64,000 bases of DNA from positions 75,489 through 139,488 of the forward strand of contig JBBRWM010000001.1 of NCBI GenBank assembly GCA_038249195.1, in the 5' to 3' direction. The notes beneath the pieces were generated by a model. It was not told the DNA's origin. It saw only the letters and a list, made by a program, of their open reading frames with translations, and did no database searches. The DNA is from Actinomycetota bacterium (GTDB taxonomy: Bacteria; Actinomycetota; UBA4738; HRBIN12). The position numbers and the translations under genes were made by a program. Below, piece after piece: positions 15,553-35,250 of the stretch; the first letter of the stretch is position 1; every line of letters begins with the position of its first letter.

Positions 15553-15683
15553 GAGAGCTCCTGGTGCTAGGGGGCCGGAGGCACGACCCTAGAGCCGACG
15601 GGATGCCGACGGCAACCGTCGTCATCGTCGTCAAGAGCGACGCGACCGCTTGCTAGACTGCTCTGCGGTCGCGCCGTCGTCGC

Positions 15684-15756
15684 GGTCCCATCGTCTAGAG
15701 GCCTAGGACATCACCCTCTCAAGGTGAAGACACGGGTTCAAATCCCGTTGGGACTA
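15684..15756 (+). tRNA. tRNA-Glu (anticodon CTC)
   Basis: GGTCCCATCGTCTAGAGGCCTAGGACATCACCCTCTCAAGGTGAAGACACGGGTTCAAATCCCGTTGGGACTA. Anticodon loop CTCTCAA (CTC at 15718-15720). Strong similarity to bacterial tRNA-Glu. Confidence 0.85.
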
Positions 15757-15757
15757 C
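15710..15757. repeat. attL: 48-bp direct repeat formed by the tRNA-Glu 3' half (identical copy at 34789-34836; degenerate third copy at 36145-36184)
   Basis: atcaccctctcaaggtgaagacacgggttcaaatcccgttgggactac occurs at both positions with unrelated flanks. Confidence 0.85.
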
Positions 15758-15761
15758 TTCC

Positions 15762-15790
15762 GAAGCCGCAGGTCGGGGGCCTGCGGCTTC
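15762..15790 (+). terminator. Perfect 11-bp stem / 7-nt loop hairpin immediately after the tRNA-Glu/attL core (no U-tract)
   Basis: GAAGCCGCAGG tcggggg CCTGCGGCTTC. Confidence 0.35.
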
Positions 15791-15824
15791 GTCGTGGTCG
15801 GTGGTTGCTCGGTGTGGGTCGCAC

Positions 15825-15836
15825 ATGGGTCCCACA
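15825..15836. repeat. Candidate integrase arm-type site ATGGGTCCCACA (left end); two tandem copies at 34652-34675 (right end)
   Basis: The 12-mer occurs only near the two island ends. Confidence 0.4.
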
Positions 15837-15895
15837 TGCTGCGCCACAGCGCCAGGCGGACCCTCTCTGGTCGCCTGCCTGTCCACCAGGCGGAC

Positions 15896-16123
15896 CTAGC
15901 AGTGGATTACCATCTCACCCTCATGACAGAAGATGACCACCTGACCTCCTGTTTCAATCACATGGAAGCCCCGGTCCTTGGCCTCTTGAACCAACTCGCC
16001 TAGCGAGGCGTACTTCTCCACGTCGTCTCTCTTTCTGCGCACCACTCCACCCTGGGCCGCGGCGTCCGCGTTGAAGATCTGATCGATCCAGGCACTCATC
16101 GACGTTCTCCTCCCTATCCGCAA
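15896..16123 (-). CDS. Hypothetical small protein (75 aa) between the tRNA and the integrase
   Basis: ORF MRIGRRTSMSAWIDQIFNADAAAQGGVVRRKRDDVEKYASLGELVQEAKDRGFHVIETGGQVVIFCHEGEMVIHC. No recognisable family. Confidence 0.3.
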   Translation of the reverse strand: MRIGRRTSMSAWIDQIFNADAAAQGGVVRRKRDDVEKYASLGELVQEAKDRGFHVIETGGQVVIFCHEGEMVIHC

Positions 16124-16169
16124 TCTTCCTCGCCGTCAGCGTGACGGTAACGATTCGAAACGGCTCCCA

Positions 16170-17339
16170 CTACCCTGAGTCGAGCGACGCGCGCACGAGT
16201 GCGTCGATCGCGTCGGCAACCTGGCGCGAGACCTCCGGGTAGACCTCGACGTAGACGGTGTCCATCATGCGCGTCGACGTGTGGCCGAGCCTCGACGCCA
16301 CCGCCTTCATGTCCTTGGTAGCCGCGTAGGCGAGCGATGCGCCGGTGTGACGCAGCCACTCGGGGCGCACGCCCTCGACCCCGGCCTTCTCGCACGCGCG
16401 CTGCCAGATCGGGCGGAACACGTGCCGCCTCACAGGCCCTCCCCGCTCTCCCGAGAAGACCAGGCCTTCCAGGTTCGGATCCTCGGCGTCGACCAGCGGC
16501 GGGAACCGAAGGAGATGCTCGAGGAGCGGCGCCACGACGACGTCCGGCAGATCGACGACGCGGTTGGAGCGGGCGGTCTTCGGCGCGCCCCACTCGAAGC
16601 GCCCGTCGACCTCCACGAGCTTCTCATCGACGCCAACGGTTCGGCCCGACAGGTCGAGGTCGTCGCGCTTCACGGCGACCAGCTCCGACCAGCGCAGCGA
16701 CGAGTAGGCGCCCAGCAGCACGAAGGCTCGCCAGCGCGGTGGCAGCGCCTCGACGATCGCCGCGATCTCCTGCGGACGGAGGACGCGGATGCTCGAGCGC
16801 TCGGTACGCGGCGCCTCGATCCGCGCGGCCGGGTTCCGCCCGATCCGGTCGGCGTCCAGTGCGCTGTTCAGCATGACCCGGGCGAGCTTCAGGGCTTCCG
16901 CCGCCTGCCACGGGGAGCGCTGGGCGACCGTGGCGACCATGGCGCGGACGTCATCGCGCGTGATCCTCGCGAGCGCTGTGGCCCCGAGCGCGGGCTCGAC
17001 GTCCAGGCGCCACGTCCGCTCGTACTTCGACGCGGTGGACGGCGCGAGGCCTCCCGCCTTCGCGCGGACGAGCCAGGTCTCGTAGAAGTCCCTGAGGAGC
17101 ACCCGACCCGCGGCGGGATCGATGTAGTTGCCCCGGGTCTTGGACGACTCCGTGTCGTGCAGGAACCGCTCGGCGTCGGTGCGCCGCTGGAAGGACTGCG
17201 ACCGCTGGATCCCGTCGGGATCTCTCCAGCGGGCGATGTAGCCGAACGATCGGCCACTGCACTCCGGGCAGCTCCGGGCTCCGTCCGTGAGGCCGCGACG
17301 GCACACCCGGCGTCGGCACCGTTTCTGGATGCTCGCCAT
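16170..17339 (-). CDS. int: Tyrosine-type site-specific integrase
   Basis: ATG at 17339 (MASIQKR...). C-terminal catalytic region with R...HxxR...Y context (LRHTGASLAY...GHTSTRMMDTVY). The 497-aa ORF N-terminal extension is rejected. Confidence 0.85.
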   Translation of the reverse strand: MASIQKRCRRRVCRRGLTDGARSCPECSGRSFGYIARWRDPDGIQRSQSFQRRTDAERFLHDTESSKTRGNYIDPAAGRVLLRDFYETWLVRAKAGGLAPSTASKYERTWRLDVEPALGATALARITRDDVRAMVATVAQRSPWQAAEALKLARVMLNSALDADRIGRNPAARIEAPRTERSSIRVLRPQEIAAIVEALPPRWRAFVLLGAYSSLRWSELVAVKRDDLDLSGRTVGVDEKLVEVDGRFEWGAPKTARSNRVVDLPDVVVAPLLEHLLRFPPLVDAEDPNLEGLVFSGERGGPVRRHVFRPIWQRACEKAGVEGVRPEWLRHTGASLAYAATKDMKAVASRLGHTSTRMMDTVYVEVYPEVSRQVADAIDALVRASLDSG

Positions 17340-18055
17340 CAGGTCGCTCCACTGCCCTTGCTCTTGCGGAGCCGGTACGCCTCCTGCCGGGTGATCACGC
17401 GCAGTTGCGGGTGTGTGCTCATCGTCTCCTGGAGCCGATCGGCCTCGGCCTCGTCCCGGGCCACGTAGGGCACGCCGTGCTCGAGCTTCACCCGCACCTC
17501 GGCGCCCCACGGCCGCGCCGCCGTCGAGGTCTGCAGATCGCCCTCGCCCTCCCAGACGAAAATCGGACCGGGAAGCTTGGTCCGCTGCCGCAGCCGCGCC
17601 TCGCGTGCCGCGATGTAGTGCTCCCCGGGGGCCCCGCCCTCGCGGCGCCAGGATCGCGCCCACGGACGGGGAAGGTCGCCGGCGAGCGCGTCGATCGCTC
17701 GTTGTGCGGGCCGGGGGGCCGGTTCGGTCGGGCTGCGGACATCCCGGGTGAGGGTGATCCAGTCGCGGAAGGGGACCGTCCGCTCCCCCACGTCCAGACG
17801 CGCCGTCGCAGCGTCTCGGGTCGGCGCTCCGCCCGGGGTCCCCAGGATCGCGTGGACCGGCATCTCGAAGTAGGCGGCGATCGCGACGAGCTCCTCCACC
17901 TTGGCGTCGCGCCGACCCGATTCGGTCTCGGCGACGGTCTGGCGGACCCAGCGGAACCCCATCGCCTCCATCGCCTCCGCGAGTTCCGCCTGGGTCAGTC
18001 CGGCGGCTCGGCGCAGCGCACCGATGTTGTCCCCGACCAGCTCTGGAACCTTCAA
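17339..18055 (-). CDS. XRE-family HTH protein with a C-terminal domain of unknown function, translationally coupled to int
   Basis: RBS GAGGAGG, then TTG at 18055. HTH GALRRAAGLTQAELAEAMEAMGF. Its stop overlaps the int ATG (TGATG). Confidence 0.55.
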   Translation of the reverse strand: MKVPELVGDNIGALRRAAGLTQAELAEAMEAMGFRWVRQTVAETESGRRDAKVEELVAIAAYFEMPVHAILGTPGGAPTRDAATARLDVGERTVPFRDWITLTRDVRSPTEPAPRPAQRAIDALAGDLPRPWARSWRREGGAPGEHYIAAREARLRQRTKLPGPIFVWEGEGDLQTSTAARPWGAEVRVKLEHGVPYVARDEAEADRLQETMSTHPQLRVITRQEAYRLRKSKGSGAT

Positions 18056-18191
18056 CGACTCGCCTCCTCGCTCAACCCTGCGCGGCGATTCTCGCACATC
18101 TGTGCGACACCTTGCAAGCATGTCTTACCTAGCGTGATAAGCTGCACCGCGTCAAGAATCCTTCCCTGGTGTGATCGAAAGGAGGGGCACG

Positions 18192-18386
18192 TTGGGTCAA
18201 GAGCTGATGAGCCGGCGGGAGGTGGCGGCTTACCTCAGGGTTCCGGAGGCGACGCTCGCCCGCTGGGCCTACGAGAGGAAGGGCCCGAGGTTCTTCCGGG
18301 TCGGTCGCCACACGCGGTACCGCTTCGAGGACGTGGTCGGGTGGCTCGAGCGGAACGGCAGCGATCAACAGCGCAACGCGCCCTGA
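18192..18386 (+). CDS. Excisionase/Xis-like HTH DNA-binding protein
   Basis: AGGAGG, then TTG at 18192. MSRREVAAYLRVPEATLARWAYERKGPRFFRVGRHTRYRFEDVVGWLE is the classical excisionase-family HTH pattern. Confidence 0.55.
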   Translation: MGQELMSRREVAAYLRVPEATLARWAYERKGPRFFRVGRHTRYRFEDVVGWLERNGSDQQRNAP

Positions 18387-18489
18387 GCGAACGAGGCAGG
18401 CAGGTGCACCTGACGAGCGAGATATCCAAGGGAACGGCCGAGGCGCGAACGCCCCGGCCGCAGCGACGCGCTTCACGGGGAGGCGCGAC

Positions 18490-19395
18490 GTGAGCGACTC
18501 TACCGGCGGGGTCCGACATGGGAAGGCCGAGCGTTGGGCCCGCGACCTCTGGTGCGAAGCGATCGGTGACTCCACCCTGCCGAAGAGCGTCAGGCTCGTC
18601 GCCTTCGCGCTCGCCACGTTCATGAATCCCGAAGGAGTCGCGCGCCCCGCTCTCGCAACGCTCGCAGCCCGGGCCGGCGTGGCGCGATCGACGGCCGGTG
18701 AGGCCGTCGCCCGCATGATCGGCGACGGGTGGCTGGAACGGCTCGATGGAGGCGGCGGTTCGAGACGAGCCACCACCTACCGGGCGACACTCCCCGCCGG
18801 CAGCGTGGAGCCAGAGCGGCTGCGAACCGTCCGGTCTGGGCCGGACGGTTCCGAACCCGAACCGTCCGAAATCGGTCGCGAACCGTCCGGAACCGAGGCT
18901 CGAACCGTCCGGTCTGGGCCGGACACGAACAGACGAACAGATCCAACAGAGGGACGATCGCTCCGAGACAAGCTCACGGCGATCGGCGCCACTCCCGACG
19001 AGATCGCCGCTGTCTTGCGCCGTCATGAAGCCCGGCGAGACGGCGGCCTCCGCGTGAGTCTGCTGCCCGAAGTCCTCGAGACCGACCTGGCAGCCGCTCG
19101 GCGCCAGATGATCCGGGAGCAGCGCGATGCCGACGCCTACGCGGCGACACACGCGAGGACGACCGCGGAGGAGGCGATCGCGTTGATCAACCCCGCCTGG
19201 GCGCCGCTCCGCCAGCGGATCGTCGACCTGTTCCAGGAGGACGGAGGCGACTGCAGAGACCTCGACCGACTCAGGACGTGTGCGACCGACCTTGCCACAG
19301 TCGCAGAGAACGACCGCGCGGCCGGCTTGGCCGCGCTGCGGGCGTTCCGCCGACGGCGCCGACCCGCCGAGAAGCCGGAGACTGTGGATGCCTGA
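18490..19395 (+). CDS. Winged-HTH protein, replication-initiator-like, with an internal repetitive linker
   Basis: N-terminal wHTH (LVAFALATFMNPEGVARPALATLAARAGVARSTAGEAVARMIGDGWLERL). Peptide repeat RTVRSGPD x2 is encoded by DNA iterons. Confidence 0.5.
   Translation: MSDSTGGVRHGKAERWARDLWCEAIGDSTLPKSVRLVAFALATFMNPEGVARPALATLAARAGVARSTAGEAVARMIGDGWLERLDGGGGSRRATTYRATLPAGSVEPERLRTVRSGPDGSEPEPSEIGREPSGTEARTVRSGPDTNRRTDPTEGRSLRDKLTAIGATPDEIAAVLRRHEARRDGGLRVSLLPEVLETDLAAARRQMIREQRDADAYAATHARTTAEEAIALINPAWAPLRQRIVDLFQEDGGDCRDLDRLRTCATDLATVAENDRAAGLAALRAFRRRRRPAEKPETVDA
18823..18924. repeat. Iteron-like array: four direct and one inverted copy of GAACCGTCCGG, plus two copies of the palindrome-containing CCGGTCTGGGCCGGAC, inside the rep-like gene
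   Basis: Copies at 18823, 18858, 18879 and 18901, inverted at 18841. Spacing is 35/21/22 bp. Confidence 0.6.
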
Positions 19396-19610
19396 TCGCA
19401 GAGGCCTCCAGGGCTCAGAGCCGATCGAGGGCTCCGCCGTGACCACCTCGTCGCCCACAGGGGTAGGGCGGGTCGGAAACTTCATGACCGAGGCCGGGCG
19501 CACACCTCGCGCCTCCCAACTTCGCACGCGCCCGAAACTGGCGATTTCAGCCGGTCAGTTTTCGCCCGAAACTCAATCGAGCCGGTCACGAAACTCAGTC
19601 CGCTGGTTCC

Positions 19611-20453
19611 TCAGGAATGACTCGGTCCAGCACCGGATCGCTCGAGCACGCGTTGGAGTCCGTCAAGCTCATCTGTCGGGATCGCCTCTACGCCGACGTC
19701 GGAGAATAGCTCCAGCGACTCCCGGTAGATCTCCTCGTGCCGAGCCGACGGCTCACCCATCACGGCGCAGATCCTGATGATCCCCGCGCTCTGGTCAGCA
19801 TCGGAAGCGACCCATGCGACATGATCACGTTGCTTGATGACTTCCTCGGGTCTCTTCACCGAGAAGGAGAGCGGCTCCACAGCCACGGCCAGCTCAGACT
19901 TCAGGGTCCGCATGATGCCAACGTCGAGGCTGTTAGCCCCGTGTCGCACCGGGATCTGCGGGCGATCCACGATCCTCTCGCGTGGCACCCCCCAAGCGCG
20001 TAGACCTTCCATGAGTATGTTCCGCACCTTGGCGCGGCCAGGGGCAGGAGCGGGGGCCGGGAGCCCCCCGACGAATTCTCGGTAGAGCTGATCAAGCGTC
20101 TGCGAAGCCTCCACCACGAGGACGGGCCTGGGGGGGGTGAACTGCATCTGGAAGCCGAACTGCCCCGAGAGCTCCTCCAGACGATCCTTGGTCAACGCCT
20201 CCGGTAGGGTGTCAATGGCGGGTTGCCCGAAGTCCTCTGGGAAGCGCAGCCGGAAGTCCGCAAGGGCGCGCTCCGCCGCCCGCGGATCGAGGTCGGGCGC
20301 GATAGCGGCGATCTTCTTGCGGAAGGCCTTGGCGAACCGGTGATGCACATGTTGACCGCTCTCGGCGGACATCACGATCCCGACGTTGATCGCCTCGTCC
20401 CTGACCGGGTGCGGGACGAATCTCACCACCGAGTACAGGTAGAGATCGCTCAT
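19611..20453 (-). CDS. DUF3037-like protein
   Basis: N-terminus MSDLYLYSVVRFVPHPVRDEAINVGIVM matches the DUF3037 signature as I recall it (Y.Y..lR.vP...r.E.iNvG). Confidence 0.55.
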   Translation of the reverse strand: MSDLYLYSVVRFVPHPVRDEAINVGIVMSAESGQHVHHRFAKAFRKKIAAIAPDLDPRAAERALADFRLRFPEDFGQPAIDTLPEALTKDRLEELSGQFGFQMQFTPPRPVLVVEASQTLDQLYREFVGGLPAPAPAPGRAKVRNILMEGLRAWGVPRERIVDRPQIPVRHGANSLDVGIMRTLKSELAVAVEPLSFSVKRPEEVIKQRDHVAWVASDADQSAGIIRICAVMGEPSARHEEIYRESLELFSDVGVEAIPTDELDGLQRVLERSGAGPSHS

Positions 20454-20465
20454 GTCATCACTCCA

Positions 20466-21251
20466 TCAACCTCCGAGAATGGGCGTTAGCACGCCGTCGA
20501 GGGCAGCTCGCGACGTCACCAGGTATCGGCCAAGGGCATTCATCTCGTCCTCGGGAACCGCCCACTCGGCTGGCACGCCAGACACGGTCCCCAGTATGGC
20601 CAGATCGTCGACAGCGGCGACGGCCTGTAGGGCCCCGGCTAGGTCCTCTGAAGTGATGACCGTGCTCAGCGGCTCGAACGCTACGGGCGTCATCGACCCA
20701 GCCTTCCCATCTACGTCGGGTCCCCAGCTGTGATCGAAGCAGTGACCGTGGTCGTACCCGAGGATGTCCACGGCACCTCCGGGTGTGCTCTTGGAGATGA
20801 GGTGCTCGGGCTTTCCGTCCGTGTTCCGGGTCCACGTGTACAGCACGACGAGCCGAGCGAGGTCGCCGCGATTGCGCGCCGAGCGGCACGTCTCGGCGCT
20901 GGGACTGAGGACGCCTTCGATCCAGATCCGCCCGAAGGCGGCGCCAGGGGAAGCGTTGGTCAGCTCGGGAACCTCCCTCTTGACCCAATCGACAATCTCA
21001 GGGGCGATGGCGACGACATCGCCGTCGGGGACGGGGGCGCCGAACAACCGGGCCAAGCGAGCCACGACGAGTTCGTTCACGAGGATCCGATCCTGCGAAC
21101 CAGAGCTGGACTGGGGGTTCCCCCGGAGCTTTACTGTGCGCCGCACGCCGTCGTCGAAGTCCATCAGGACGGCGGCCGACCCACCCCCTCCAGCTTTCTG
21201 CAGAAACGTCGTCGCCGCGGGCCGTGTGGCCTCACCGGTTTCAGCATCCAC
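20466..21251 (-). CDS. HipA-core (CtkA/HipC-like) Ser/Thr kinase domain protein, 261 aa
   Basis: LVVLYTWTRNTDGKPEHL...GYDHGHCFD resembles the HipA C-terminal catalytic and activation motifs. No HipA N-terminal domains. Starts 15 nt after the hsdR stop. Confidence 0.55.
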   Translation of the reverse strand: MDAETGEATRPAATTFLQKAGGGGSAAVLMDFDDGVRRTVKLRGNPQSSSGSQDRILVNELVVARLARLFGAPVPDGDVVAIAPEIVDWVKREVPELTNASPGAAFGRIWIEGVLSPSAETCRSARNRGDLARLVVLYTWTRNTDGKPEHLISKSTPGGAVDILGYDHGHCFDHSWGPDVDGKAGSMTPVAFEPLSTVITSEDLAGALQAVAAVDDLAILGTVSGVPAEWAVPEDEMNALGRYLVTSRAALDGVLTPILGG

Positions 21252-21266
21252 GTCCGCAGCCCACGA

Positions 21267-24263: not shown

Positions 24264-25537
24264 CAGGCCACCGCTCCGGTCCTCGAGAAGTCCCCTGAAA
24301 CAGCGCGAGTGATAAGAGCCTGGCGGCGCTCCGCCAATAGCCGGATCTGGTCCTTCAGCTGCCCAACAAGCAAACGCATCCGATCCCGCTCCGCATCGAG
24401 AGTCGCTACGACTTCCTCTTGCTCTGGCGGCGATGGATAGGGGAATCGGTGCGCTCGCAACTGCTCACGTGTGAGATGAACGATCGTGCTTTGGTTGCCC
24501 TCGACAGCGAACACGTCGCGGCCAGCGGCGGCGCGGAGACAGTACATCAGGAAGCGCGTCGAACCCAGGTGGCGCGGTCGCACTCGATGAACAGCCTTCT
24601 GGAAGAAGCAGGGCTCTACCTCACCCTTCCAGATGGCGGCCCTCCCCACCTCGCCTCCCTCACAAACCAATAGGTCCCCGGGGCGGAGCTCGCATCGACG
24701 TCGATCGAGCGCGTCGAAGTGCATCGAGTCGAGTTGATCTAAATCGAGGCGATCCCACTGCACGTTGGTGTTCCTGAGATACGGATACTGTTCAACGCCG
24801 GCACTAGCCTCAGGATTCACCATCTTCCCAAGCGTCACGTCGAAGTTGGCGCTCACCCTTTGCACGCTCCAGGACGTCGGAATCTCGCCGAGCCAGTCGA
24901 GTCCGGAGTCCTTCCTGGGTCCCTTCACGAGACCGCCCGAAATCAGATGGAAGACAGATGCCTCGAAGCGCTCTTCAAGCAGGGCAGCCACGTGCTGCTT
25001 CTTGTCAGTAAGCGCGTCGATGAGTGCGGTCTCGGCATTGAGATAGTCGGCGATGGCCCGCTGCCCAGGAAGAGAATGAACGGGAACCTCAATCGCAGCG
25101 ACCGCGTCGGCCCGAAGCCCGAAGCGGGTGACTCCACTCGCGGCAACCTCCTCCTGCGATCGCACCAACGTCGAGGCCATGCACCAGTACAGGAACTTGG
25201 GGATAACTCGCGACGGATCCGGCCTGATCAATGACAGGTGGTAGCCGCAGAGGACGCGATCCATGGGCTCGTCGATGAACGCCGGGACGCCGATGTCGTC
25301 GGCGGTCTCAGAGTCCTTCGTGATCAAGATGTCCCCGGGTTCAACCTGGAACTGTCGAATCTGGTCCTGAGTGGCAGTTGCGTCCATGAACTCGAGCTCG
25401 GACGTGATGAGCGGGTTGTAGTAGACATCCGTGTAGTTGCATAGGTGGACCGCCTGCTCCCCCTCCACGCTCTTCTTGTCGACATTGCTCGGTTTGACGG
25501 TGGCGAGATACTTCAGCTTCCTCGTCGCGTAGGTCAC
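24263..25537 (-). CDS. hsdS: Type I restriction-modification specificity subunit
   Basis: 424 aa with two target-recognition-domain halves separated by conserved coiled-coil repeats (…LIDALTDKKQHVAALLEERFEA… / …LVGQLKDQIRLLAERRQALI…). Confidence 0.85.
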   Translation of the reverse strand: MTYATRKLKYLATVKPSNVDKKSVEGEQAVHLCNYTDVYYNPLITSELEFMDATATQDQIRQFQVEPGDILITKDSETADDIGVPAFIDEPMDRVLCGYHLSLIRPDPSRVIPKFLYWCMASTLVRSQEEVAASGVTRFGLRADAVAAIEVPVHSLPGQRAIADYLNAETALIDALTDKKQHVAALLEERFEASVFHLISGGLVKGPRKDSGLDWLGEIPTSWSVQRVSANFDVTLGKMVNPEASAGVEQYPYLRNTNVQWDRLDLDQLDSMHFDALDRRRCELRPGDLLVCEGGEVGRAAIWKGEVEPCFFQKAVHRVRPRHLGSTRFLMYCLRAAAGRDVFAVEGNQSTIVHLTREQLRAHRFPYPSPPEQEEVVATLDAERDRMRLLVGQLKDQIRLLAERRQALITRAVSGDFSRTGAVA

Positions 25538-27528: not shown

Positions 27529-27646
27529 GGGGGTTCAGGGCTCCGTGTTGTCGTCAAGGAACAATGGCCGGAGCTTATCCCAGCTCTGTCAGCCGGTCCG
27601 GCAGGGCCGTCGGCCGTCTGTCAGGGCTTCGGACTACGGTTCAGTG

Positions 27647-29386
27647 ATGAATAGCGGGAGCGCCGTGGATAAGGGAAGCCTAGCCCGGGTTCGATCCGCC
27701 CTCGCCGGCGCCTCGGCGCTTCACGAAACTTCAGCCGCCCTGCGCGCTAGCTGGACTGATCAGGAGCCGGACCCCGCCGAACCGTTCATCTGGGCGTTCG
27801 ACTACCACTACCTTGAATCCAGCCAGCGGCTCGCTCGCGGGGCTTCAGGGCCGTGGGGACCGATGCTCGAGATGGATGGCCGCATCTGGCCACCCCCGCT
27901 CCCGACTGTCGCCGACGAACACTTGGCCGCTTGGGCGGATGCGGCCGCTGCGCTGTCAGATCTTCCCCTCGGCGCAGCCAGGCTCCACGACCTGCTCTGG
28001 GAACGCCGCTGGGGCGAACGGCCGGACCTCCACGCTCGATCGGCAGTCGACGCCTACACCGCGCTGATCCCCGAGTCCGAATCGCTCGACTCGGCGCACC
28101 ACATCGCTCGCTCGATGGAACTGGCGATAGCGGTTGGCGACCGCGAGAGAGAACGCGAGGTAGTTGCGCTCAGCCTGGCGGCGGCTCGACGGTCGCTCGA
28201 AGCCTCGACCCCGGAACCCGGAGTCGCGCTGAGACATGCCGAAGCGCTTCTCACGCTCCCGCGCGAGCGGCAACCTGCCGAAGTCGACGAACTCCTGGAG
28301 GGCGCGGCCAGCATCTATGCCGACGATCCGTGGATCGTCGAGACGGTGTTGGACCTCAAGGTCGAACGATCGACGGATCCAGATGCCGTTCGCGCACTGC
28401 GATTGCAGCAGGTCAACACATGGCGAGCCGCTGCAAGCGAGGCGGCAGGCTTGGTGAAGCTCAGCCACCTCCAGCGTGCTCTCGAGCTGGCTCGATTGCA
28501 TAACCTCGGATTCCTGATTGACGAGGTCCGACTCGAGCTTCAGGCGATCTCTGAGGAAGACCTGGACCTTAAGGAACTTTCAGCCGAAGTCACCGTCCCG
28601 GCAGACGAGGTGGAGAGGTACATCGAGAGGCTCGTCGGGGGGAGCTGGCAGGAAGCGTTGACCGCCATCGGTGCGGTCGGCCCGCCAAGCGGCCAGGTCG
28701 AGAAGAACATCGCGGATATCGAGCAGCAGATGAAGGACTTTCCGCTCTCACACCTCTTCACGCGGACCCTGCTCGGACCCGACGGCATCCCGACCAAGAG
28801 CGCTATGAGTGAGGAGGAGCATAAGGCGGAGGCGTTGATCCGGCAGGAACTGTTCGGCATCCAGGTCGAGAGTCATTTCAGAGCTGAAGCCTTGGACCGT
28901 GCCAGGGAACGCTACGGGCAGCCGTCGGCGGAGGAGCTGGCCGAGTTCTTCACGACTCCGCTCATCACCGCCGAGATCGCCGAGCGCTTCGCTCGGTCGC
29001 TGGATCTGTACTGGAGCGGCCACTTCGATGAGGCCGCTCTGGTCGCCCTGCCGCGCATCGAAGCTGTCCTCCGCAATGTTGCCCGAGAAGGAGGCTTCGC
29101 GATCGTCCGAGAGCCCCAACCGACCAAACCCGGCGGTGTGAAGCCGCTCGGAGAGATCCTCCGTCTCCTGGAAGGCGGGTATCCGGAGTCGTGGCGAAGG
29201 TACTTGCTGAACGCGCTCGTGGAGCCGACAGGGTTCAATCTCAGGAACGTCCACCTTCACGGGGTGCGGGCTGCCGCCACCCGCGAAGAAGCGGCCATCT
29301 TGATACAGATCGCCTGCCATTTGCGACTCATCCGAAGCGGTCCGTCGGACGACGAGACGAGTCCACACCACCCTGCGCCGGCCTAG
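27647..29386 (+). CDS. Large hypothetical protein (579 aa), mostly alpha-helical, with a C-terminal 'RN..HG' motif (DUF4209-like?)
   Basis: GTG/ATG at 27644/27647. C-terminus ...YLLNALVEPTGFNLRNVHLHGVRAAATREEAAILIQIACHLRLI. Divergent from hsdM across a 118-bp gap. The ORF's 5' extension of 52 aa is rejected. Confidence 0.5.
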   Translation: MNSGSAVDKGSLARVRSALAGASALHETSAALRASWTDQEPDPAEPFIWAFDYHYLESSQRLARGASGPWGPMLEMDGRIWPPPLPTVADEHLAAWADAAAALSDLPLGAARLHDLLWERRWGERPDLHARSAVDAYTALIPESESLDSAHHIARSMELAIAVGDREREREVVALSLAAARRSLEASTPEPGVALRHAEALLTLPRERQPAEVDELLEGAASIYADDPWIVETVLDLKVERSTDPDAVRALRLQQVNTWRAAASEAAGLVKLSHLQRALELARLHNLGFLIDEVRLELQAISEEDLDLKELSAEVTVPADEVERYIERLVGGSWQEALTAIGAVGPPSGQVEKNIADIEQQMKDFPLSHLFTRTLLGPDGIPTKSAMSEEEHKAEALIRQELFGIQVESHFRAEALDRARERYGQPSAEELAEFFTTPLITAEIAERFARSLDLYWSGHFDEAALVALPRIEAVLRNVAREGGFAIVREPQPTKPGGVKPLGEILRLLEGGYPESWRRYLLNALVEPTGFNLRNVHLHGVRAAATREEAAILIQIACHLRLIRSGPSDDETSPHHPAPA

Positions 29387-29423
29387 GCCTAGCCCAGACG
29401 GGAATCGGCGGTGTATACGTCTC

Positions 29424-29960
29424 GTGATGAGAGCGGACGCGACGGCGCGCGGGAAGGAGTGCCTTGCGCTTCTCGAGCAGGCCGGCCGCGATGCGGGTTG
29501 GACCGTGGTGCGGGAGTACCCGGTACCCGGCGGGAGAGTCGACCTTGTCTGGACCTGGCAGCCCGATTCGGCACTGGCCGGTGCCCCCGGACCGATCCCG
29601 ATCGTGGGCTTCGAGGTCGAGTCCAGTTGGCGCACCCGGCAGCACGTCAAGGGCGACCTCGTCAACCTGGCGGCCCTCCAGGCTGCGCTTGGAGTGATCG
29701 TCTTGCTTGGCCTCGATGAGGGCGACGGCTTGCTCCCGCACGCCGAGGAGCTGGTCGAGCGGTGGCCCTGGCGGATAGTCGTGTGGACCGAACGCGACGT
29801 CGAAGGACTCGTGAACGGCCTCGGCAACCAACCATTGAGTTTCGCGGCTGGCTGCGCAAGCGCGGGACCATCGACCGAGGACGATCCTGCTTCGACGACG
29901 ACGAGCCACGCGGGGGGTGGCGTGACGCCCACACACGGTCGTGTCCCGTCAAGTGGTTGA
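29424..29960 (+). CDS. Hypothetical protein with a possible PD-(D/E)xK-like core, 3' end abutting or interrupted by the IS256 insertion
   Basis: GRVDLVW...IVGFEVESSWRTRQHVKGD. The C-terminal 50 aa are low-complexity. The IS target duplication lies inside this tail. Confidence 0.35.
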   Translation: MMRADATARGKECLALLEQAGRDAGWTVVREYPVPGGRVDLVWTWQPDSALAGAPGPIPIVGFEVESSWRTRQHVKGDLVNLAALQAALGVIVLLGLDEGDGLLPHAEELVERWPWRIVVWTERDVEGLVNGLGNQPLSFAAGCASAGPSTEDDPASTTTSHAGGGVTPTHGRVPSSG

Positions 29961-31322
29961 GATTCGTCACCGCCATCCTCGCTTCCTAGGCGATCGCAGC
30001 GAGTAGTTCCTTGGGGTCCTCACCTCCCTCGAGCTCGGCGGCCTTGGCCATGGATCCGATCGAGAAGTAGCGGCGATCGGCCACCTGCCATTCGTCGTCT
30101 TGTTCAGCGAGCAGCGTCCCGACCATGCGCATCAACGAGTCGAGCGTCGGGAAGATCCCGATCACTCGGGTGCGCCGCTTGACCTCCTTGTGCAGCCGCT
30201 CGATCGGGTTGGTCGAGTGCAGCCGACGCCGGTGTTCCCGGGGGAAGTGCATGTGGGCCAGCACGTCTTCTGCGGCGTCTTCCAGCAGCTCCGCGGCCTG
30301 GGGGAACCTGGGCTCGAGCATCCGTGCGACCTCGTGCAGCTGGGTCATCGCCGAGGCGTGATCGGGGGCCACGAACACGGTGCGCACCACCGCGGCCACG
30401 GTGTCTTGAGCACCCTTGGGCACCGTGGACAGCAGGTTCCGCATGAAGTGAACCCGGCATCGCTGCCAGGTGGCCCCGGTGAGCACCTTCGCGATCGCCT
30501 GGCGCAGTCCCTCGTGCGCATCAGAAATCACCAGACGCACCCCTTTCAGCCCTCGCTTGATCAACGAGCGAAGGAACGACGTCCAGAACTGATGGTCCTC
30601 GCTCTGGCCGGTGGCCGCACCCAAGATCGTGCGTTGGCCTTCGGCGTTCACCCCGATCGCGACGACCGTGGCGACCGAGGTGACGCGGCCGGCCTGACGC
30701 ACCTTGTGGAAGGTGGCGTCCAACCACACGTAGGGGTGCTCGCCTTCGATCGGGCGCGTGAGGAAGTCCTTCACCTCGCCATCTAATGACTTGCAGATCC
30801 TGGAGACCTCCGAGCGTGAGATCCCATCGATCCCCAGGGCTTTGACGAGGTCATCGACCTTGCGGGTGCTCACGCCCTTGACGTAGGCCTCGACCACCAC
30901 CGCATGCATCGCCTTCTCGGCTCGCCGGCGGGGTTCGAGCAGGCTCGGGAAATAGGCCCCGGCACTCACCTTGGGGATCTTGAGCTCGATCGTGCCCGCC
31001 CGGGTGTCCCAGCGCCTGGTGCGGTAGCCGTTGCGGTAGGCGACCCGCTCGGAGCTGCGTTCATACGGCCCAGCACCGATCTGGGAGGAGACCTCGGTCT
31101 CCATCACGGCTTGGGCGAGCACCCGCACGCCTTCACGAAGCAGATCCACGTCGTCTTCCTCGAGAAGCTTGCCGACGAACGACGTGATGTCCATCCTGTT
31201 GGTGGCCATCGTCCCTCCCCATCTGACTGTCCTGTCGATGAGGATGGCGGTGGCCATCTATGTCACGGGGATTTCCACCCCGGATCTCCACTTCGAAAGT
31301 CCACCACTTCTCGGGACGCTAA
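29937..31322. mobile_element. IS256-family insertion sequence with imperfect terminal IRs and a 9-bp target-site duplication CCCACACAC
   Basis: Left IR ggtcgtGTCCCGTCAAGTGGTTGAGATTCG. The right end reverse-complements to GTCCCGAGAAGTGGTGGACTTTCG. TSD at 29928-29936 and 31323-31331. Confidence 0.8.
29986..31209 (-). CDS. tnp: IS256-family (mutator-type) transposase
   Basis: ATG at 31209 (MATNRMDITSFVGKLLEED...). DDE region ...VWLDATFHKVRQ...LVISDAHEGL. Confidence 0.9.
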   Translation of the reverse strand: MATNRMDITSFVGKLLEEDDVDLLREGVRVLAQAVMETEVSSQIGAGPYERSSERVAYRNGYRTRRWDTRAGTIELKIPKVSAGAYFPSLLEPRRRAEKAMHAVVVEAYVKGVSTRKVDDLVKALGIDGISRSEVSRICKSLDGEVKDFLTRPIEGEHPYVWLDATFHKVRQAGRVTSVATVVAIGVNAEGQRTILGAATGQSEDHQFWTSFLRSLIKRGLKGVRLVISDAHEGLRQAIAKVLTGATWQRCRVHFMRNLLSTVPKGAQDTVAAVVRTVFVAPDHASAMTQLHEVARMLEPRFPQAAELLEDAAEDVLAHMHFPREHRRRLHSTNPIERLHKEVKRRTRVIGIFPTLDSLMRMVGTLLAEQDDEWQVADRRYFSIGSMAKAAELEGGEDPKELLAAIA

Positions 31323-31603
31323 CCCACACACTTCGGCAAGTACCGGGCTCTATACGACTGGCTGACGGCCAATCAGCGGATCGCGTGCCAGCGACCTTCG
31401 GCCAGGTGGAGGAGATTCTGGGGTTCCCTCTCCCACGATCCTCAAGAGACCACCCGGCGCACTGGTCTGGGTACGAGGGCAGCGCAGTCGCGAGAGCGAT
31501 CGCTGACGCAGGCTGGCGAGCCAGGAACGTGAACCTGGCCGCCGAGACCCTCGTCTTCGAGCGCGTGACCTGAGGTGGATCGCCTCAGACGCGGCCCTGC
31601 TGA

Positions 31604-32449
31604 CTAGCTGTTTCCAAGAAGATCGTCGCGGACATCGCGCACGAAGGACGTGCACACGGCTTCCACTCGATCCGCTGGAACCCCGACGCGCAGAGCCTCC
31701 ACCGCCATCTGTATGCCACGGCTCGCCCGGGCTCCGAAGAGTTCGTCGAGGAACGCCAAGGCTGCTGCGGTCGGCGCCTCGGCTATGGGGTCGGCGAGCA
31801 GCGGCCGTAGCCTCTGGAGGAAGTCCTCGACCGGCACCGCCTGCATGATGCGGTAGACGTCCGCGGCGTCCTTGTCAGCGATCCGGTCATCCTTACCCGC
31901 ATGCAGGCGCTCGTGCAGCTTGTGGAGCTTCGCCACCACAAGGGCGGCCGGTCCGGCGACCCGGACCGAGAAGCTTCGAGTCTCCGTAGCTTCGAGCCCG
32001 GAGATCTCCATGACATCGACGTCGATGACCACTCCTTCAAGGCCCAGGGCCTTGCGCGCCGACATCTTGTCGTGGGGCTCGATCCGCGCGCCTCTGGTTC
32101 CGCCGGGAGGGGCGAGGCCCTCTGGCACCATGACGTCGACCGGGATGATCACGCTCCGCCCACCGACCCCGACGCTCTTGATCCAGGCCCCTGGCTGTTG
32201 TCCCTCTTGCGAGAACCCTCCTGCGCGCATCAGCTCCTCGAGGTGAGGCTGATCGGCCAGATCGGCAGGCGAGAGAGCGAGGTCCGCGTCGGTCGTGTAC
32301 GGGGCAACCGAGATATCGCCGTCCCCGGTCCTGAGGTAGACCGCCTGAGCGCCGACTACGACCACCGCGTCCCTCTGCGACCCGAGAGCCTCGAGCGCAT
32401 CCAGCAATACCGAGCGTGCGGCGACGTACAGCGGGTCGTAGTCAGTCAC
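31604..32449 (-). CDS. Nucleotidyltransferase-fold protein, AbiEii-like (putative type IV TA toxin / Abi)
   Basis: GTG at 32449, 3 nt after the upstream stop. N-terminal NTase motif VVVGAQAVYLRTGD...TTDADLAL (hG[GS]...DxD). Confidence 0.5.
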   Translation of the reverse strand: MTDYDPLYVAARSVLLDALEALGSQRDAVVVVGAQAVYLRTGDGDISVAPYTTDADLALSPADLADQPHLEELMRAGGFSQEGQQPGAWIKSVGVGGRSVIIPVDVMVPEGLAPPGGTRGARIEPHDKMSARKALGLEGVVIDVDVMEISGLEATETRSFSVRVAGPAALVVAKLHKLHERLHAGKDDRIADKDAADVYRIMQAVPVEDFLQRLRPLLADPIAEAPTAAALAFLDELFGARASRGIQMAVEALRVGVPADRVEAVCTSFVRDVRDDLLGNS

Positions 32450-32452
32450 CCG

Positions 32453-33568
32453 TCACTCGCGTTCGACCGCTGCGGCCATGGCCTCGATCGAGGCGTAGCG
32501 CCATGTGTTCTCGTTCTCGCGCATCCACTCGATCACGGCGTCGCCTTCGGCGGGCATCCGTCCGCTGCCGGCTAGGCAATCCATCGCCACCTGGCTGGGC
32601 GCGGCCCACACCAGGCCGCCGTCGCGGACCGCGCGCGCGAACACGACCTCGTTGTCGGGACGCACCAGGACGACGTCCGCGCCGGTCTCGGCGGGGAGGA
32701 GCTCGAGCTCTTGGGCGAGGTCGCGCGGCGACATCGTGTACATGACGAGCAGGGTCGGCGCGGCCACCGGCGAAAGACGAGCGGCGGCGAACGATCCGGT
32801 GATCGTCGGCGCTCCCTCCGGCCCGCGCATCGCCAGTTGCTCCACGAGTCCACGCGCGCCCTGGCGGGCGACGTAGCGGAAGCTCCCGGTCGGACGGAAG
32901 AGGTCGAGCACCTGTGCTCGGCGCCGGAGCACGGCGGGCCAGTCGACTCCGGTGACTGGGCCTGGGCTCTCCCTCTCGATCAGTCCCTCGTCGTCAAGGG
33001 TCTCCAGGATGCGGGAGACGTATCCCTCGTTGACGTTCGCTGCCTTCGCGATCTCGGCCCCGGTGTACGGCGGGGTTGCGTCGACCAGCACCCGAACGAC
33101 CGCACCGACCTTCGCGCCTCGCAACCCTCGTCGCGACTTCGTCGCCGAGGGGTCGCGCTGGGCGCCTTGGGTCTCGATGAAGACGCCGACCTGATCCAGG
33201 CTGATGCGGATGTTCCCCGTCAGGTCCACGTAGCTGACGCTCTCTTCCACCAGCAGCTCACGGACCTTCGGGCTTACATAGGGCGCGACGACCAGGATCG
33301 GGTAGTTCCCCATCTGCTTACGGAGGCGCCTCCACGGTCCACCCATGAGCACCTGCACATCGCGCACCGAGACGTCGGAGCGAGCTACGACGGCGACCGG
33401 TGTCTGAGATGACGGCTGCGGTCCCTTGATGATCAGGTCCTGGGGCTCGGGATCACCCCCGAGAGAGATCTTCTCGATGGCCCAGTTCGTGGGCAGGCGG
33501 CGGGTGAGCACATCGATCGCCGCGTCCAGGAGCTGGTTTTCCGTCCGTTCCAGTTGTTGGGCTTCCAT
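32453..33568 (-). CDS. Winged-HTH DNA-binding protein, AbiEi-like putative antitoxin/regulator
   Basis: AAGGAGG RBS, then ATG at 33568 (MEAQQLERTENQ...). Central MarR-like wHTH TGAEIAKAANVNEGYVSRILETLDDEGLIERE. Confidence 0.5.
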   Translation of the reverse strand: MEAQQLERTENQLLDAAIDVLTRRLPTNWAIEKISLGGDPEPQDLIIKGPQPSSQTPVAVVARSDVSVRDVQVLMGGPWRRLRKQMGNYPILVVAPYVSPKVRELLVEESVSYVDLTGNIRISLDQVGVFIETQGAQRDPSATKSRRGLRGAKVGAVVRVLVDATPPYTGAEIAKAANVNEGYVSRILETLDDEGLIERESPGPVTGVDWPAVLRRRAQVLDLFRPTGSFRYVARQGARGLVEQLAMRGPEGAPTITGSFAAARLSPVAAPTLLVMYTMSPRDLAQELELLPAETGADVVLVRPDNEVVFARAVRDGGLVWAAPSQVAMDCLAGSGRMPAEGDAVIEWMRENENTWRYASIEAMAAAVERE

Positions 33569-33576
33569 CTTGCCTC

Positions 33577-33598
33577 CTTGCCTCACCTTGGCAAGGGT
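33577..33598. promoter_or_regulatory. Inverted repeat TTGCC-N12-GGCAA overlapping the RBS of the wHTH gene, with further GGCAAGG direct repeats to 33682
   Basis: cttgcctccttgcctcaccttggcaagg and ggcaaggcttgtccagtctagacaaggcttgcc (contains GTCTAGAC). Confidence 0.35.
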
Positions 33599-33823
33599 AC
33601 ATGTATCGGGCAAGGCTTGTCCAGTCTAGACAAGGCTTGCCTGTCTCACGTGCGCGTGTCAGGGTCAGGCAATCTGGCAAGGTATCGGGTTCGCGCCTCG
33701 TTTCACTCTTTCGCCCGTTTCACCGCGGCGGTGAATATGGCCGATCCAGTGAAACGTGGCGCCTCCTGGTCGCGGGCTACCCTTGCGGGCGTTGGGGCGT
33801 CACCTGGGAGGTGGGACAGACCG

Positions 33824-34645
33824 ATGGCTGGGGTAGGGAGCACCGTGGGGCAGCTCTTCGTGATCGCCCGCAACCCTGAGCCGGACTCCAAGCTCCCTTA
33901 CCTGCTCAGCCTCCCGCTCGAGGGCCCCCTGATCCTCAAGGCACGCGACACCTGGCCGCGGGCCACGCGGATCTACTGCCACCCCTTCGAGGACGTGTGG
34001 CCCGCCGACGCCGACGTCATCGAGGAGACGCCGGTCACCTCGTGCCGGCGGCGGGGCGCGGTGATCGATCTGGTGCTCGACCGGCCGCGGAACACGCGGT
34101 CCCAGTTCGTGTTCACAGAGACCCGCGGACGACCCGCGATCTTCTGGCAGACGCAGAAGGCCGCCCGCGCGGCGAACCCCGGCGCTCGGATCCCGCGCCG
34201 CCGGGCCCTGACCGAGACCTTCACGATCTCGATCGACACGAGGGAGCGCTACCCCTACCGCTTCTCCGGCAGGAACGTCTTGGTCGAGCGCGCGACGCTG
34301 CAGGCCGGGGACTACGCGATCCTCGCCGACGGCGAGATCCTCGCGACGGTCGAGCGGAAGACCTTGGAGAACTTCGCGTCCTCGCTCTCGGACGGCACCA
34401 TCGCGTTCCAGATGCAGCGCCTCGGCGAGGCGCCGCGCGCCGCCGTGGTGGTGGAGGCCCGCTACTCCGCCCTGTTCAAGCTCGATCACGTTCCCGCGGG
34501 CTGGATCGCCGACGTGCTCGCCCGCCTGCAGGTCCGCTACCCGGAGATCCAGGTGGTCTTCGCCGACTCCCGGAAGTTCGCGGAAGAGTGGGCCTTCCGG
34601 TTCCTGGCTGCGGCGCTCGCCGAGGCCACCGACCGGGCGCCATAG
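33824..34645 (+). CDS. ERCC4 (XPF/Mus81-type) nuclease-domain protein, paralog 1
   Basis: ISIDTRE...GDYAIL...VERKTLENF matches the ERCC4 signature (V/IDxRE ... GDY ... ERKxxxD). Confidence 0.6.
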   Translation: MAGVGSTVGQLFVIARNPEPDSKLPYLLSLPLEGPLILKARDTWPRATRIYCHPFEDVWPADADVIEETPVTSCRRRGAVIDLVLDRPRNTRSQFVFTETRGRPAIFWQTQKAARAANPGARIPRRRALTETFTISIDTRERYPYRFSGRNVLVERATLQAGDYAILADGEILATVERKTLENFASSLSDGTIAFQMQRLGEAPRAAVVVEARYSALFKLDHVPAGWIADVLARLQVRYPEIQVVFADSRKFAEEWAFRFLAAALAEATDRAP

Positions 34646-34788
34646 CCATGAATGGGTCCCACATGGGTCCCACACGCGGACGCGAACCGGCGCGAAACGG
34701 CGCCACCCGACGCCAACCCTCAACCGCTCGTTTCCCCTGCTCAGCGGCCATTCAACTCCATCACCGCTGGTAGGCGAACCGCCCTCCG

Positions 34789-34836
34789 ATCACCCTCTCA
34801 AGGTGAAGACACGGGTTCAAATCCCGTTGGGACTAC
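34789..34836. repeat. attR: second copy of the tRNA-Glu 3' 48-mer
   Basis: Identical to 15710-15757. Confidence 0.85.
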
Positions 34837-35206: not shown

Positions 35207-35250
35207 GTCTGCCCCTATCTCTCGTCCTTCGTTCGGGCCGGACCTTCGTT

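Follow-up and report, generated by a model that had tools for sequence, protein, structure and literature searches.

In the Staphylococcus aureus pathogenicity islands (SaPIs) and the phage-inducible chromosomal islands (PICIs), the genes follow the order int and repressor, then xis and rep. The origin is built of iterons, and defence cargo is known. In phage lambda, the iterons lie inside gene O, in the linker after the DNA-binding domain, and a tract richer in A+T comes next. The locus described here is part of a 64,000-nucleotide stretch of contig JBBRWM010000001.1 (assembly GCA_038249195.1, positions 75,489 to 139,488) from an Actinomycetota bacterium, hereafter the window. It holds a 19-kb island of a size class similar to that of SaPIs and PICIs, next to a gene for tRNA-Glu(CTC). 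Defence islands bounded by an integrase are well documented at tRNA hotspots (PMC10121019, PMC10201445, PMC11551731). In the integrative and conjugative elements of actinomycetes (AICEs), the attachment (att) identity segments are 43-58 bp long, comparable to the 48 bp found here (PMC2440964).

The segment 15758-34836 is, in all likelihood, one site-specific integrative element and belongs to a family whose members occur in uncultured soil Actinomycetota and have tRNA-Glu(CTC) as their target. Judged by sequence comparison, this reading is favoured because a 48-bp core rebuilds the tRNA, the integrase is full-length, an Xis-type gene is present and arm-type sites lie on both sides. It is also favoured because the island is absent from a close relative and its ends recur elsewhere with homology that stops at the core. 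Coordinates given without a locus refer to the window, and L-numbers denote the loci or contigs of the relatives compared with it. The coding frames of the island were picked by GC content at third codon positions (GC3).

Attachment sites and boundaries of the island

The window contains two tRNA genes. One of them, tRNA-Glu(CTC) at 15684-15757 (+), was called by ARAGORN and by Rfam (RF00005, 63.8 bits) and is the integration target. Rfam found no RNA other than tRNA in the window. A repeat search returned a direct repeat of 48 identical nt, with copies at 15710-15757 and 34789-34836, 19,079 bp apart from start to start. The repeat spans tRNA positions 27-74, which include the whole anticodon arm, the T arm and the 3' strand of the acceptor stem. 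Because the match is 48/48, chance is excluded. The first copy, the 3' 48 nt of the tRNA gene, forms the attL core. The second copy (+) is an exact partial copy of the tRNA and forms the attR core and the right boundary of the island; homology to the relative L073 ends at the end of this core. Neither ARAGORN nor Rfam called a second tRNA at the distal copy, and the 26 nt upstream of it (34763-34788) are unlike the 5' half of the tRNA. With 48 bp of identity that extend back to the anticodon arm, the site belongs to the classic anticodon-loop type of tRNA integration.

Beyond attL, attR and one degenerate third copy, no further att copies are present in the window, and none lies within the island. 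A division of the 19 kb into two tandem elements was rejected, as there is no internal att copy. At the attL junction, the window reads ...ACTAC|TT. The tRNA genes of L002, L005 and L075 encode CCA (...ACTACCA). With the island in place, CCA is no longer encoded in the genome and must be added post-transcriptionally. Directly after the tRNA, the island supplies a perfect inverted repeat with a 12-bp stem (15761-15791, +). This hairpin is conserved in the decayed relative L075 and is a probable terminator of the tRNA.

Arm-type sites are found at both ends. The P' arm-type sites, TGGGTCGCACA and TGGGTCCCACA, are 11-bp repeats in tandem at 15815-15836 (+), 58 bp inside attL. The P arm-type sites consist of TGGGTCCCACA twice in tandem at 34653-34674 (+), 115 bp before attR, and are conserved at the right end of L073. 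With one mismatch or fewer, the 11-mer TGGGTCCCACA has five matches in the 64 kb against 0.79 expected, and four of these five are the pairs at the ends of the island. In all eight related int-tRNA spacers examined, the equivalent place is likewise taken by two tandem 9-11-mers, most with a GGGAC core. Examples are CGCGGGACGGA/TGCGGGACGGA and CGCGGGACCC/TGCGGGACCC; the pair of the window, read on the integrase strand, is TGTGGGACCCA/TGTGCGACCCA. The arm-site sequences thus differ among family members. Other short repeats are present near both att sites: CCAGGCGGACC occurs twice, 34 bp apart, near attL (region 15852-15896), and CGCGAAMCGG occurs twice in tandem near attR (region 34681-34700) and is conserved in L073. 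These may be sites for Xis or an accessory factor.

The island has a GC content of 0.660 and the flanks 0.696. The tetranucleotide distance to the flanks is 0.25-0.33 for the cargo, compared with 0.145 +/- 0.024 outside the island, and the int-rep backbone is host-like. The original prediction, made from the sequence alone, described a 48-bp direct repeat flanking 19.1 kb, an integrase beside the tRNA with XRE, Xis-like and winged helix-turn-helix (wHTH) genes, and a full att and arm-site architecture. The exact repeat with no full tRNA at its second copy, the Pfam assignments of genes at the places it named, and the tandem 11-mers at both ends all agree with this description. The composition check that it proposed gives the lowered GC content and the raised k-mer distance over the cargo reported above.

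Relatives of the island in other genomes

A close relative, L002, is an uncultured Actinomycetes metagenome-assembled genome (MAG) that is collinear with the window on both sides at 85-91% nucleotide identity. On the left, the shared genes are tRNA-Gln, isocitrate dehydrogenase, phosphoesterase and tRNA-Glu. On the right, they are the degenerate (fossil) att copy and copA. Between the tRNA and the fossil att, L002 contains 8.3 kb of unrelated DNA, including a gene for a 1910-aa BTAD-kinase-STAND-WD40 protein, and no island. The absence of the island from L002 indicates that it is lineage-specific. The original prediction had named two results that would speak against it. One was the same gene content at the locus in close relatives, which L002 does not carry; the other was a 48-bp match belonging to a second full tRNA gene, which is not the case here. 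Its proposed search for an empty site had a mixed outcome: L002 is without the island, but its site is occupied by other content and is not a pristine attB.

The right end of the island recurs in L073 (GCA_040961345.1), which matches 31624-34835 of the window at 86%. This match takes in genes for a nucleotidyltransferase (NTase), its partner and an ERCC4 protein as well as the P-arm repeats, and it ends precisely with the last position of the att core (46/46). The flank beyond is a different one, with a Rieske gene following the core. The interior past the NTase differs as well. In L075, which is syntenic on both sides, there is no integrase. The tRNA-Glu, the hairpin and the P' arm repeats are kept (85% to 15676-15859), and 62 bp from the 3' end of the integrase gene (93.5% to 16188-16249) are fused to the NTase pair (83% to 31620-33692). 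L075 is a deleted and decayed relative of the same island.

Related integrases show the same choice of target. In seven metagenome loci (L014, L015, L016, L038, L039, L042 and L050), an integrase with 57-77% identity is separated by 70-90 bp from a tRNA-Glu(CTC) on the opposite strand, and in L007, L011, L033 and L034 the distance to a tRNA-Glu(CTC) is larger. The backbones near related integrases are diverse. They include integrative and conjugative elements (ICEs) of the type IV secretion system (T4SS) kind, with VirB4/TraC, VirD4-like and Replic_Relax relaxase genes (L007, L011, L029), relaxase-xis-int arrangements (L033, L037), DUF3631 elements (L014, L015, L028) and an AAA_25 element (L005). 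The L005 element is a 9.2-kb island with a 47-bp exact repeat, its own arm pair at both ends and a fossil copy.

A separate integrase subclade with approximately 53% identity adjoins tRNA-Gly(GCC) in L024, L029 and L052, which suggests a target switch within the integrase family. In L007 (JGI 3300050231, 11456-19945), a 62%-identical integrase lies between a T4SS/relaxase module and cargo made up of Multi_ubiq, ThiF (E1-like), M78 peptidase and large AAA protein genes. This cargo is possibly a ubiquitin-like (Bil-type) defence system carried by an actinobacterial ICE at tRNA-Glu(CTC).

Integration, regulation and replication genes

The integrase gene (16170-17339, -) encodes a tyrosine recombinase of 389 aa with an N-terminal domain of the arm-binding type (Pfam Phage_integrase, Phage_int_M and SAM_3). 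Its start is the ATG at 17339, in agreement with the exact database protein P0001. The catalytic columns R216, K254, R330, H353 and Y363 are invariant across 20 homologues. The homologues carry Pfam Integrase_N_phage at the N terminus, which fits arm binding. In annotated phage and plasmid collections, the best matches have approximately 27-32% identity (27-32% to plasmid/AICE-type integrases in PLSDB, approximately 30% to actinophage integrases), and no close relative is present in 2.9 million IMG/VR viral contigs. With identities this low, the integrase represents a new clade, though of a known kind. Between attL and the integrase gene is a small open reading frame (ORF) of 75 aa (15896-16123, -; 67 aa in a Logan assembly). 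It has no match in Pfam, NCBIfam, PADLOC or PHROGs and is absent from the decayed relative L075.

Upstream of int and in the same orientation is a gene for an XRE-family helix-turn-helix regulator of 238 aa (17339-18055, -), identified by Pfam HTH_31 and HTH_3, by PHROG repressor families and by the gene call in L009. It is divergent from xis and rep and is the putative island repressor. The Xis-like excisionase is of the HTH_17 (MerR) type (18171-18386, +; Pfam HTH_17 3.4e-11; PHROG 66 'excisionase'), and its start is likely at 18207, giving 59 aa. Xis is the only island protein other than the integrase that recurs widely beside related integrases. A scan for sigma-70 promoters gave no match, and a search for operator-like repeats in the xre-xis intergenic region was likewise negative. 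We infer the XRE/Xis switch from the gene layout.

The rep gene (18490-19395, +) encodes a lambda-O-like replication initiator with a wHTH N-terminal domain (PHROG 391 'replication initiation O-like', 3.5e-11). It also matches three other replication-initiator or primosomal PHROGs. A putative origin lies inside the gene at 18823-18951 (+), where iterons are followed by a relatively A+T-rich tract (ACGAACAGACGAACAGATCCAACAGA). Five exact copies of the iteron GAACCGTCCG, one of them inverted and the other four direct, share 88 bp (18824-18911) at spacings of 35, 21 and 22 bp, and no exact copy occurs elsewhere in the window. The iterons occupy rep codons 111-140, directly after the wHTH domain.

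The same arrangement is found in L072. The Rep homologue encoded there (P0242) has 57% identity in the N-terminal domain (PF13730 HTH_36), and the same contig encodes an HTH_17 Xis. The L072 array is built of the unit GAAACCGTCCCA, again as four direct copies and one inverted, with spacings of 47, 21 and 22 bp, and is followed by GAACAGAAGAACAGAAGAACAGA. In its outer copies, exact repetition extends to 24 nt. Repeat number and phasing are conserved, and the unit is identical within an element and differs between elements, which points to iterons co-evolving with the initiator. The predicted O-like Rep and iteron origin is well supported by this conservation. Repeated peptides in the Rep linker could also contribute to the repeat array.

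Defence and toxin genes

Approximately 15 of the 19 kb are defence or toxin cargo. The largest unit is a type I restriction-modification (R-M) operon at 21267-27528 (-), consisting of hsdM (25534-27528), hsdS (24263-25537) and hsdR (21267-24263). In Pfam, HsdM matches N6_Mtase (4e-60) and HsdM_N, HsdS matches Methylase_S in two stretches, and HsdR matches HSDR_N, SWI2_SNF2, ResIII and T1R_D3. All three genes are full-length; HsdS has two target-recognition domains, and HsdR has nuclease, helicase and C-terminal domains.

Between rep and hsdR are a gene for a DUF3037 protein (19611-20453, -; Pfam DUF3037 1.1e-15; PADLOC PDC-M66B 1.2e-8) and one for a putative HipA-like kinase core of the PDC-M66A type (20466-21251, -; Pfam HipA_2 1.1e-4; PADLOC PDC-M66A 5.4e-4). 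The translation of the second contains kinase-like NTD...H and DHG motifs. The DUF3037 protein is the putative antitoxin or partner of the kinase (PDC-M66B / HipAD-B type). A HipA-like kinase with DUF3037 is the PDC-M66 architecture, validated against phage as DS-6/HipAD and beside Retron-Sda1 (PMC13092281, PMC12548924). In the validated pairs, defence depends on the kinase, which is itself toxic and is neutralised by DUF3037, so that toxicity appears when DUF3037 is lost (PMC13092281, PMC12548924).

Divergent from hsdM is a gene for a 631-aa protein of the HEPN superfamily (DUF4209/C6orf70 type; 27491-29386, +), which matches the PADLOC candidate PDC-S39 (4.7e-16) and, weakly, Pfam DUF4209. 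The protein ends with an RNVHLH (Rx4H) motif, and translation probably begins downstream of 27491. Members of DUF4209, a HEPN family, have been noted in R-M operons (PMC3710099). The next ORF (29424-29960, +) has no profile match at any threshold. It lost its original 3' end to an insertion sequence (IS); with the IS taken out in silico, the frame continues to 237 aa. Beyond the IS is a small DUF7662 protein gene (31373-31573, +; Pfam DUF7662 5.1e-9).

The IS is an IS256-family element of 1386 bp (29937-31322, -) with its transposase gene at 29986-31257 (Pfam Transposase_mut 1.7e-127). Its terminal inverted repeats are imperfect, and a perfect 9-bp target duplication, CCCACACAC, is present at 29928-29936 and 31323-31331. 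It thus has the Mutator-type DDE transposase, the inverted repeats and the 8-9 bp duplication by which the IS256 family is recognised.

At the right end, an operon encodes a 281-aa NTase of the NTP_transf_8/GSU2403 family (31604-32449, -), a putative toxin with a MenT/AbiEii-like fold, and upstream of it a 371-aa wHTH protein (32453-33568, -; wHTH at residues 165-215), a putative antitoxin or regulator. More than 1500 NTase homologues were found, many of them with PF12281 (NTP_transf_8) or annotated as 'GSU2403 family nucleotidyltransferase fold protein'. G33 and the D54xD56 motif are invariant. Sequence searches of the PDB with the NTase and with the partner returned nothing useful, and for the predicted NTase structure the best solved-structure matches are MenT1, MenT3 and MenT4. 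MenT toxins modify tRNA acceptor stems and thereby block translation (PMC7450476, PMC10435456). The wHTH partner has no AbiEi match in Pfam, and a profile of four partners finds only MarR/SlyA wHTH proteins (E approximately 1) in the PDB, not 6Y8Q. A partner of 371-386 aa is upstream of the NTase in every context examined (L067, L068, L069, L070, L073 and L075). Neighbours of the pair in these loci include a Gabija-like OLD and UvrD pair, Fic, HsdS, M78 peptidase and DUF4411.

Divergent from the NTase pair is a gene for an ERCC4 (XPF/Hef-type) nuclease-domain protein (33824-34645, +; Pfam ERCC4 5e-14; Hef nuclease domain in the PDB, 5e-4). ERCC4 accompanies the pair in the window, L067 and L073 and not in L068, L069 and L075. 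Together, NTase, wHTH and ERCC4 resemble a cassette conserved at the right end in this family of islands more than they resemble random cargo. Cassette proteins of the window and L067 are 86-87% identical, whereas core proteins between these lineages are approximately 75-78% identical by an indirect comparison.

The gene content of the cargo had been predicted as almost entirely defensive or addictive and non-conjugative, and the cargo profiles and the lack of transfer domains agree with this. The identities of the type I R-M system and the ERCC4 nuclease are borne out by Pfam. The pair called AbiE-like was correct in toxin fold and operon logic and incorrect in family, as the NTase belongs to PF12281 and no AbiEi is present. 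The unknown gene was correctly placed as divergent from hsdM and can now be assigned to the HEPN/DUF4209 proteins (PDC-S39). The label of a nuclease-like gene, given to the ORF truncated by the IS, was not upheld by any profile. The original prediction also overlooked the IS256 element and the third, degenerate att copy (36138-36185).

The integration hotspot and its flanks

The degenerate tRNA-3' copy at 36138-36185 (+) matches the core at 85% over 48 nt and 93% over 41 nt and marks the outer edge of the hotspot as a fossil attR. Its orthologue in L002 has the same downstream flank, and the substitutions differ between the two. Additional copies occur in the relatives: in L005 a fossil follows attR at a distance of 519 bp, in L002 there is one more copy of 18 nt, and L067 has two partial copies and one truncated copy at the distal edge. 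This pattern corresponds to the sequential integration described for AICESav3708/3728 (PMC2440964). The locus reads as an old integration hotspot used in multiple genomes.

The 1.3 kb between attR and the fossil att (34837-36137) are an older remnant of the hotspot, with a 67-aa BTAD fragment (35721-35924, -; C-terminal part of Pfam BTAD only) and small ORFs. Two tiny hydrophobic ORFs of 57 and 30 aa at 35036-35345 (-) were read by eye, and a 97-aa ORF at 35406-35699 has no profile match. An origin of the remnant as a decayed orthologue of the BTAD/STAND genes of L002 and L067 was rejected, as the similarity is only generic to BTAD and the orientation is inconsistent.

A copA-type P1B ATPase gene (cupredoxin, HMA and YHS domains; 36237-39218, -) adjoins the fossil att and is present in L002. 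In the syntenic L075, copA and approximately 1.5 kb at 41830-43381 have no counterpart and the hotspot directly abuts an MFS gene. The variable region may therefore reach beyond the fossil att. A second ERCC4 gene lies outside the island at 39655-40488 (+), between copA and an MFS transporter gene. It is 84% identical to the island copy in protein and 85% in nucleotides, with homology from near codon 5 to the stop codon, and is equally near the L067 copy (86%), so that the three copies are related in a star-like way. An older island of this family could have left it behind as its last trace; no att copy adjoins it.

On the left flank, three tandem paralogues of approximately 1.3 kb (7553-11975) have 67-70% mutual nucleotide identity and align with PF04185 phosphoesterase (phospholipase C-like) genes of L075. 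A PadR-family regulator gene (13669-14307, -) between isocitrate dehydrogenase and phosphoesterase is missing from L002 (an indel of approximately 900 bp) and present in the Logan contig L001.

Mobility of the island and alternative explanations

In the proposed cycle, the XRE protein would repress the divergent xis-rep operon. Upon derepression, Int and Xis would recombine attL with attR, with a crossover in the anticodon-loop region, as suggested by the length of the identity block. The excised circle would replicate from the iteron origin within the O-like rep gene and be reintegrated by Int into a tRNA-Glu(CTC). While resident, the island would protect its host through type I R-M, the HipA-like/DUF3037 abortive-infection pair and the HEPN RNase, and it would be stabilised by the MenT-like, tRNA-modifying NTase toxin and its wHTH partner. 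The island is probably still competent for excision. As it has no transfer genes, movement between cells would need a helper, which could be a related T4SS element, a phage or transformation.

Several observations weigh against the interpretation of the segment as a site-specific integrative element of this family. No relaxase, coupling protein, FtsK/TraB, VirB4, Spd, capsid or terminase was found in the island ORFs by Pfam, PADLOC or PHROG. The IS lies inside the cargo, which indicates that some decay has begun. Neither attP nor attB was observed, and two Logan contigs from SRR19962012, a run with exact copies of the flank and the integrase, break inside the repeat. A search through the flanking phosphoesterase gene returned no clean empty site (pristine attB) in species-level genomes, the only close relative, L002, being occupied otherwise. 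Rep has no BLAST match in phage or plasmid collections and is nearly an orphan, with only two hits in a word-indexed protein search and a single homologue (P0242). Among the cargo assignments, the kinase scores 22 bits with HipA_2, below the cut-off of 27, and the NTase matches AbiEii/DUF1814 (PF08843) at E 0.06 and 13.7 bits, also below the cut-off. In L067 (GCA_041643115.1, 5796-9329), the trio (84% nucleotide identity to the window) is distal to an att copy, the reverse of the order in the window. Its position outside the att copy indicates that the cassette also moves or rearranges independently.

The sequence just upstream of that L067 att copy resembles the sequence just upstream of attR in the window. 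No single excision or integration step was found that would turn one arrangement into the other.

The alternative that survives best, although we consider it rather unlikely, is that the island arrived by integration and is now fixed and immobile, its genes serving in host defence. The lack of transfer genes, the IS256 element in the cargo and the lack of an observed circular form are consistent with it, as are the dead remnants held by the hotspot (the fossil att, L075 and L067). The condition of the island argues for the opposite. Its two repeats agree at 48/48 positions, in contrast to the fossil copy, which drift has brought down to 85%. None of the int, xre, xis and rep ORFs is truncated, the catalytic columns are conserved, and the arm sites are intact at both ends. 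The IS is outside the backbone, and its duplication is still perfect, which indicates that the insertion is recent.

An unlikely alternative concerns the helper. The island could be a mobilisable passenger of related T4SS elements, moved in trans through an unrecognised oriT, or in cis after tandem integration of an ICE, with the composite excising from the outermost att sites. Integrases 57-77% identical to that of the island occur near Replic_Relax relaxases and VirB4/VirD4-type genes (L007, L011, L029, L033, L037) and share the tRNA-Glu(CTC) target, and multiple tandem att copies are present in four genomes. Tandem integration is also documented for AICEs (PMC2440964). However, the island has no recognisable oriT or relaxase, and no ICE is co-resident in the 64-kb window. 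The arm-site sequences differ between members, so cross-recognition by a foreign integrase is uncertain. A wider and more speculative proposal, which we regard as distinctly improbable, is that the island family is a replicative, transfer-defective hitch-hiker in which NTase, wHTH and ERCC4 form an undescribed three-gene addiction or anti-phage module. The family would then spread via T4SS elements that share its integrase clade and tRNA-Glu(CTC), by tandem accretion or trans-mobilisation.

There is only a slight chance that the island is a PICI-like phage satellite, or a defective prophage remnant, in need of a helper phage. The int-repressor and xis-rep-ori layout is that generally known for SaPIs and PICIs, the Rep is lambda-O-like with an intragenic origin, and the best annotated integrase matches include actinophage integrases at approximately 30%. 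No terminase, capsid, portal or packaging-interference gene is present, however. The island ORFs are all accounted for, with no unassigned space to harbour a transfer gene, and PHROG matches are limited to the regulator, Xis, Rep and ERCC4. IMG/VR contains no close integrase.

An origin of the repeat by local duplication, or from a second, decayed tRNA among ordinary chromosomal genes, has nothing in its favour beyond the existence of the repeat and is refuted by a partial copy that starts exactly at tRNA position 27, an adjoining integrase with arm sites, the absence of the segment from L002, the same end on a different flank in L073, and the atypical composition.

The interpretation as an integrative element leaves a cleanly delimited, well-preserved defence island, with att core, arms, switch, origin and cargo, from uncultured soil Actinomycetota of a group that has been little studied. 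The integrase clade, with its fixed tRNA-Glu(CTC) target, could be developed into a vector for integration in these organisms. For high-GC Gram-positives, the island sets three defence types that are candidates or newly validated (HipA-like/DUF3037, HEPN-DUF4209/PDC-S39 and the GSU2403-type NTase pair) in a mobile context. The island is otherwise an ordinary example of a well-known kind, and the understanding of such islands is unchanged.

Comparison with described systems

The cargo operons have described counterparts. Like DS-6/HipAD (PDC-M66), the island has a putative HipA-like kinase followed by DUF3037 (PMC13092281, PMC12548924). It differs in a kinase match below the Pfam cut-off and in the lack of a DUF1829 match, and would represent an actinobacterial version. 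Like MenAT and AbiE, the NTase pair is a two-gene operon with the DNA-binding partner upstream, and the structure model of the NTase is nearest MenT1, MenT3 and MenT4. Unlike them, the NTase belongs to PF12281 and not PF08843, the 371-aa partner has a central wHTH and no similarity to AbiEi or MenA, and a divergent ERCC4 gene often joins the pair. The replication gene shares with lambda O and ori-lambda a wHTH initiator with iterons in its own gene and an A+T-richer tract after them. The resemblance to lambda O is limited to the profile level (PHROG E 3.5e-11). The island lacks a P-like helicase loader, and the gene is not on a phage.

The island shares with SaPIs and PICIs the int-repressor and xis-rep order with iterons, but has no packaging or capsid-remodelling genes, and its family is absent from IMG/VR. 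The defence islands of Escherichia coli integration hotspots, of chromosomally integrated mobile genetic elements (ciMGEs) and of pipolins are likewise integrase-bounded at a tRNA hotspot, with direct repeats, a small backbone and exchangeable defence genes (PMC10121019, PMC10201445, PMC11551731). The island is in another phylum, has an integrase of another family and a replicative backbone, and lacks PolB. It differs from ICEs and integrative and mobilizable elements (IMEs) of the T4SS type in the absence of relaxase, coupling protein and VirB4, which are present by related integrases in L007, L011, L029, L033 and L037.

The AICEs differ from the island in their FtsK/TraB-type transfer gene, spd, pif/NUDIX and kor, all of which the island lacks, and in a replication module of RepSA, RepAM or prim-pol, where the island has a lambda-O-like Rep with intragenic iterons. 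Approximately 15 of the island's 19 kb are defence or toxin cargo, and its integrase is 27-32% identical to PLSDB plasmid/AICE-type integrases. Shared with AICEs are the actinobacterial host, a tyrosine integrase with Xis, a replication module and a regulator (PMC2440964). Also shared are an att segment of approximately 43-58 bp over the tRNA 3' end that keeps the tRNA functional, and tandem integrations that leave att copies (PMC2440964). The AICE modules of integration, regulation and replication are thus present without that of transfer, and the element nearest in spirit is the replicative, non-conjugative pSE101.

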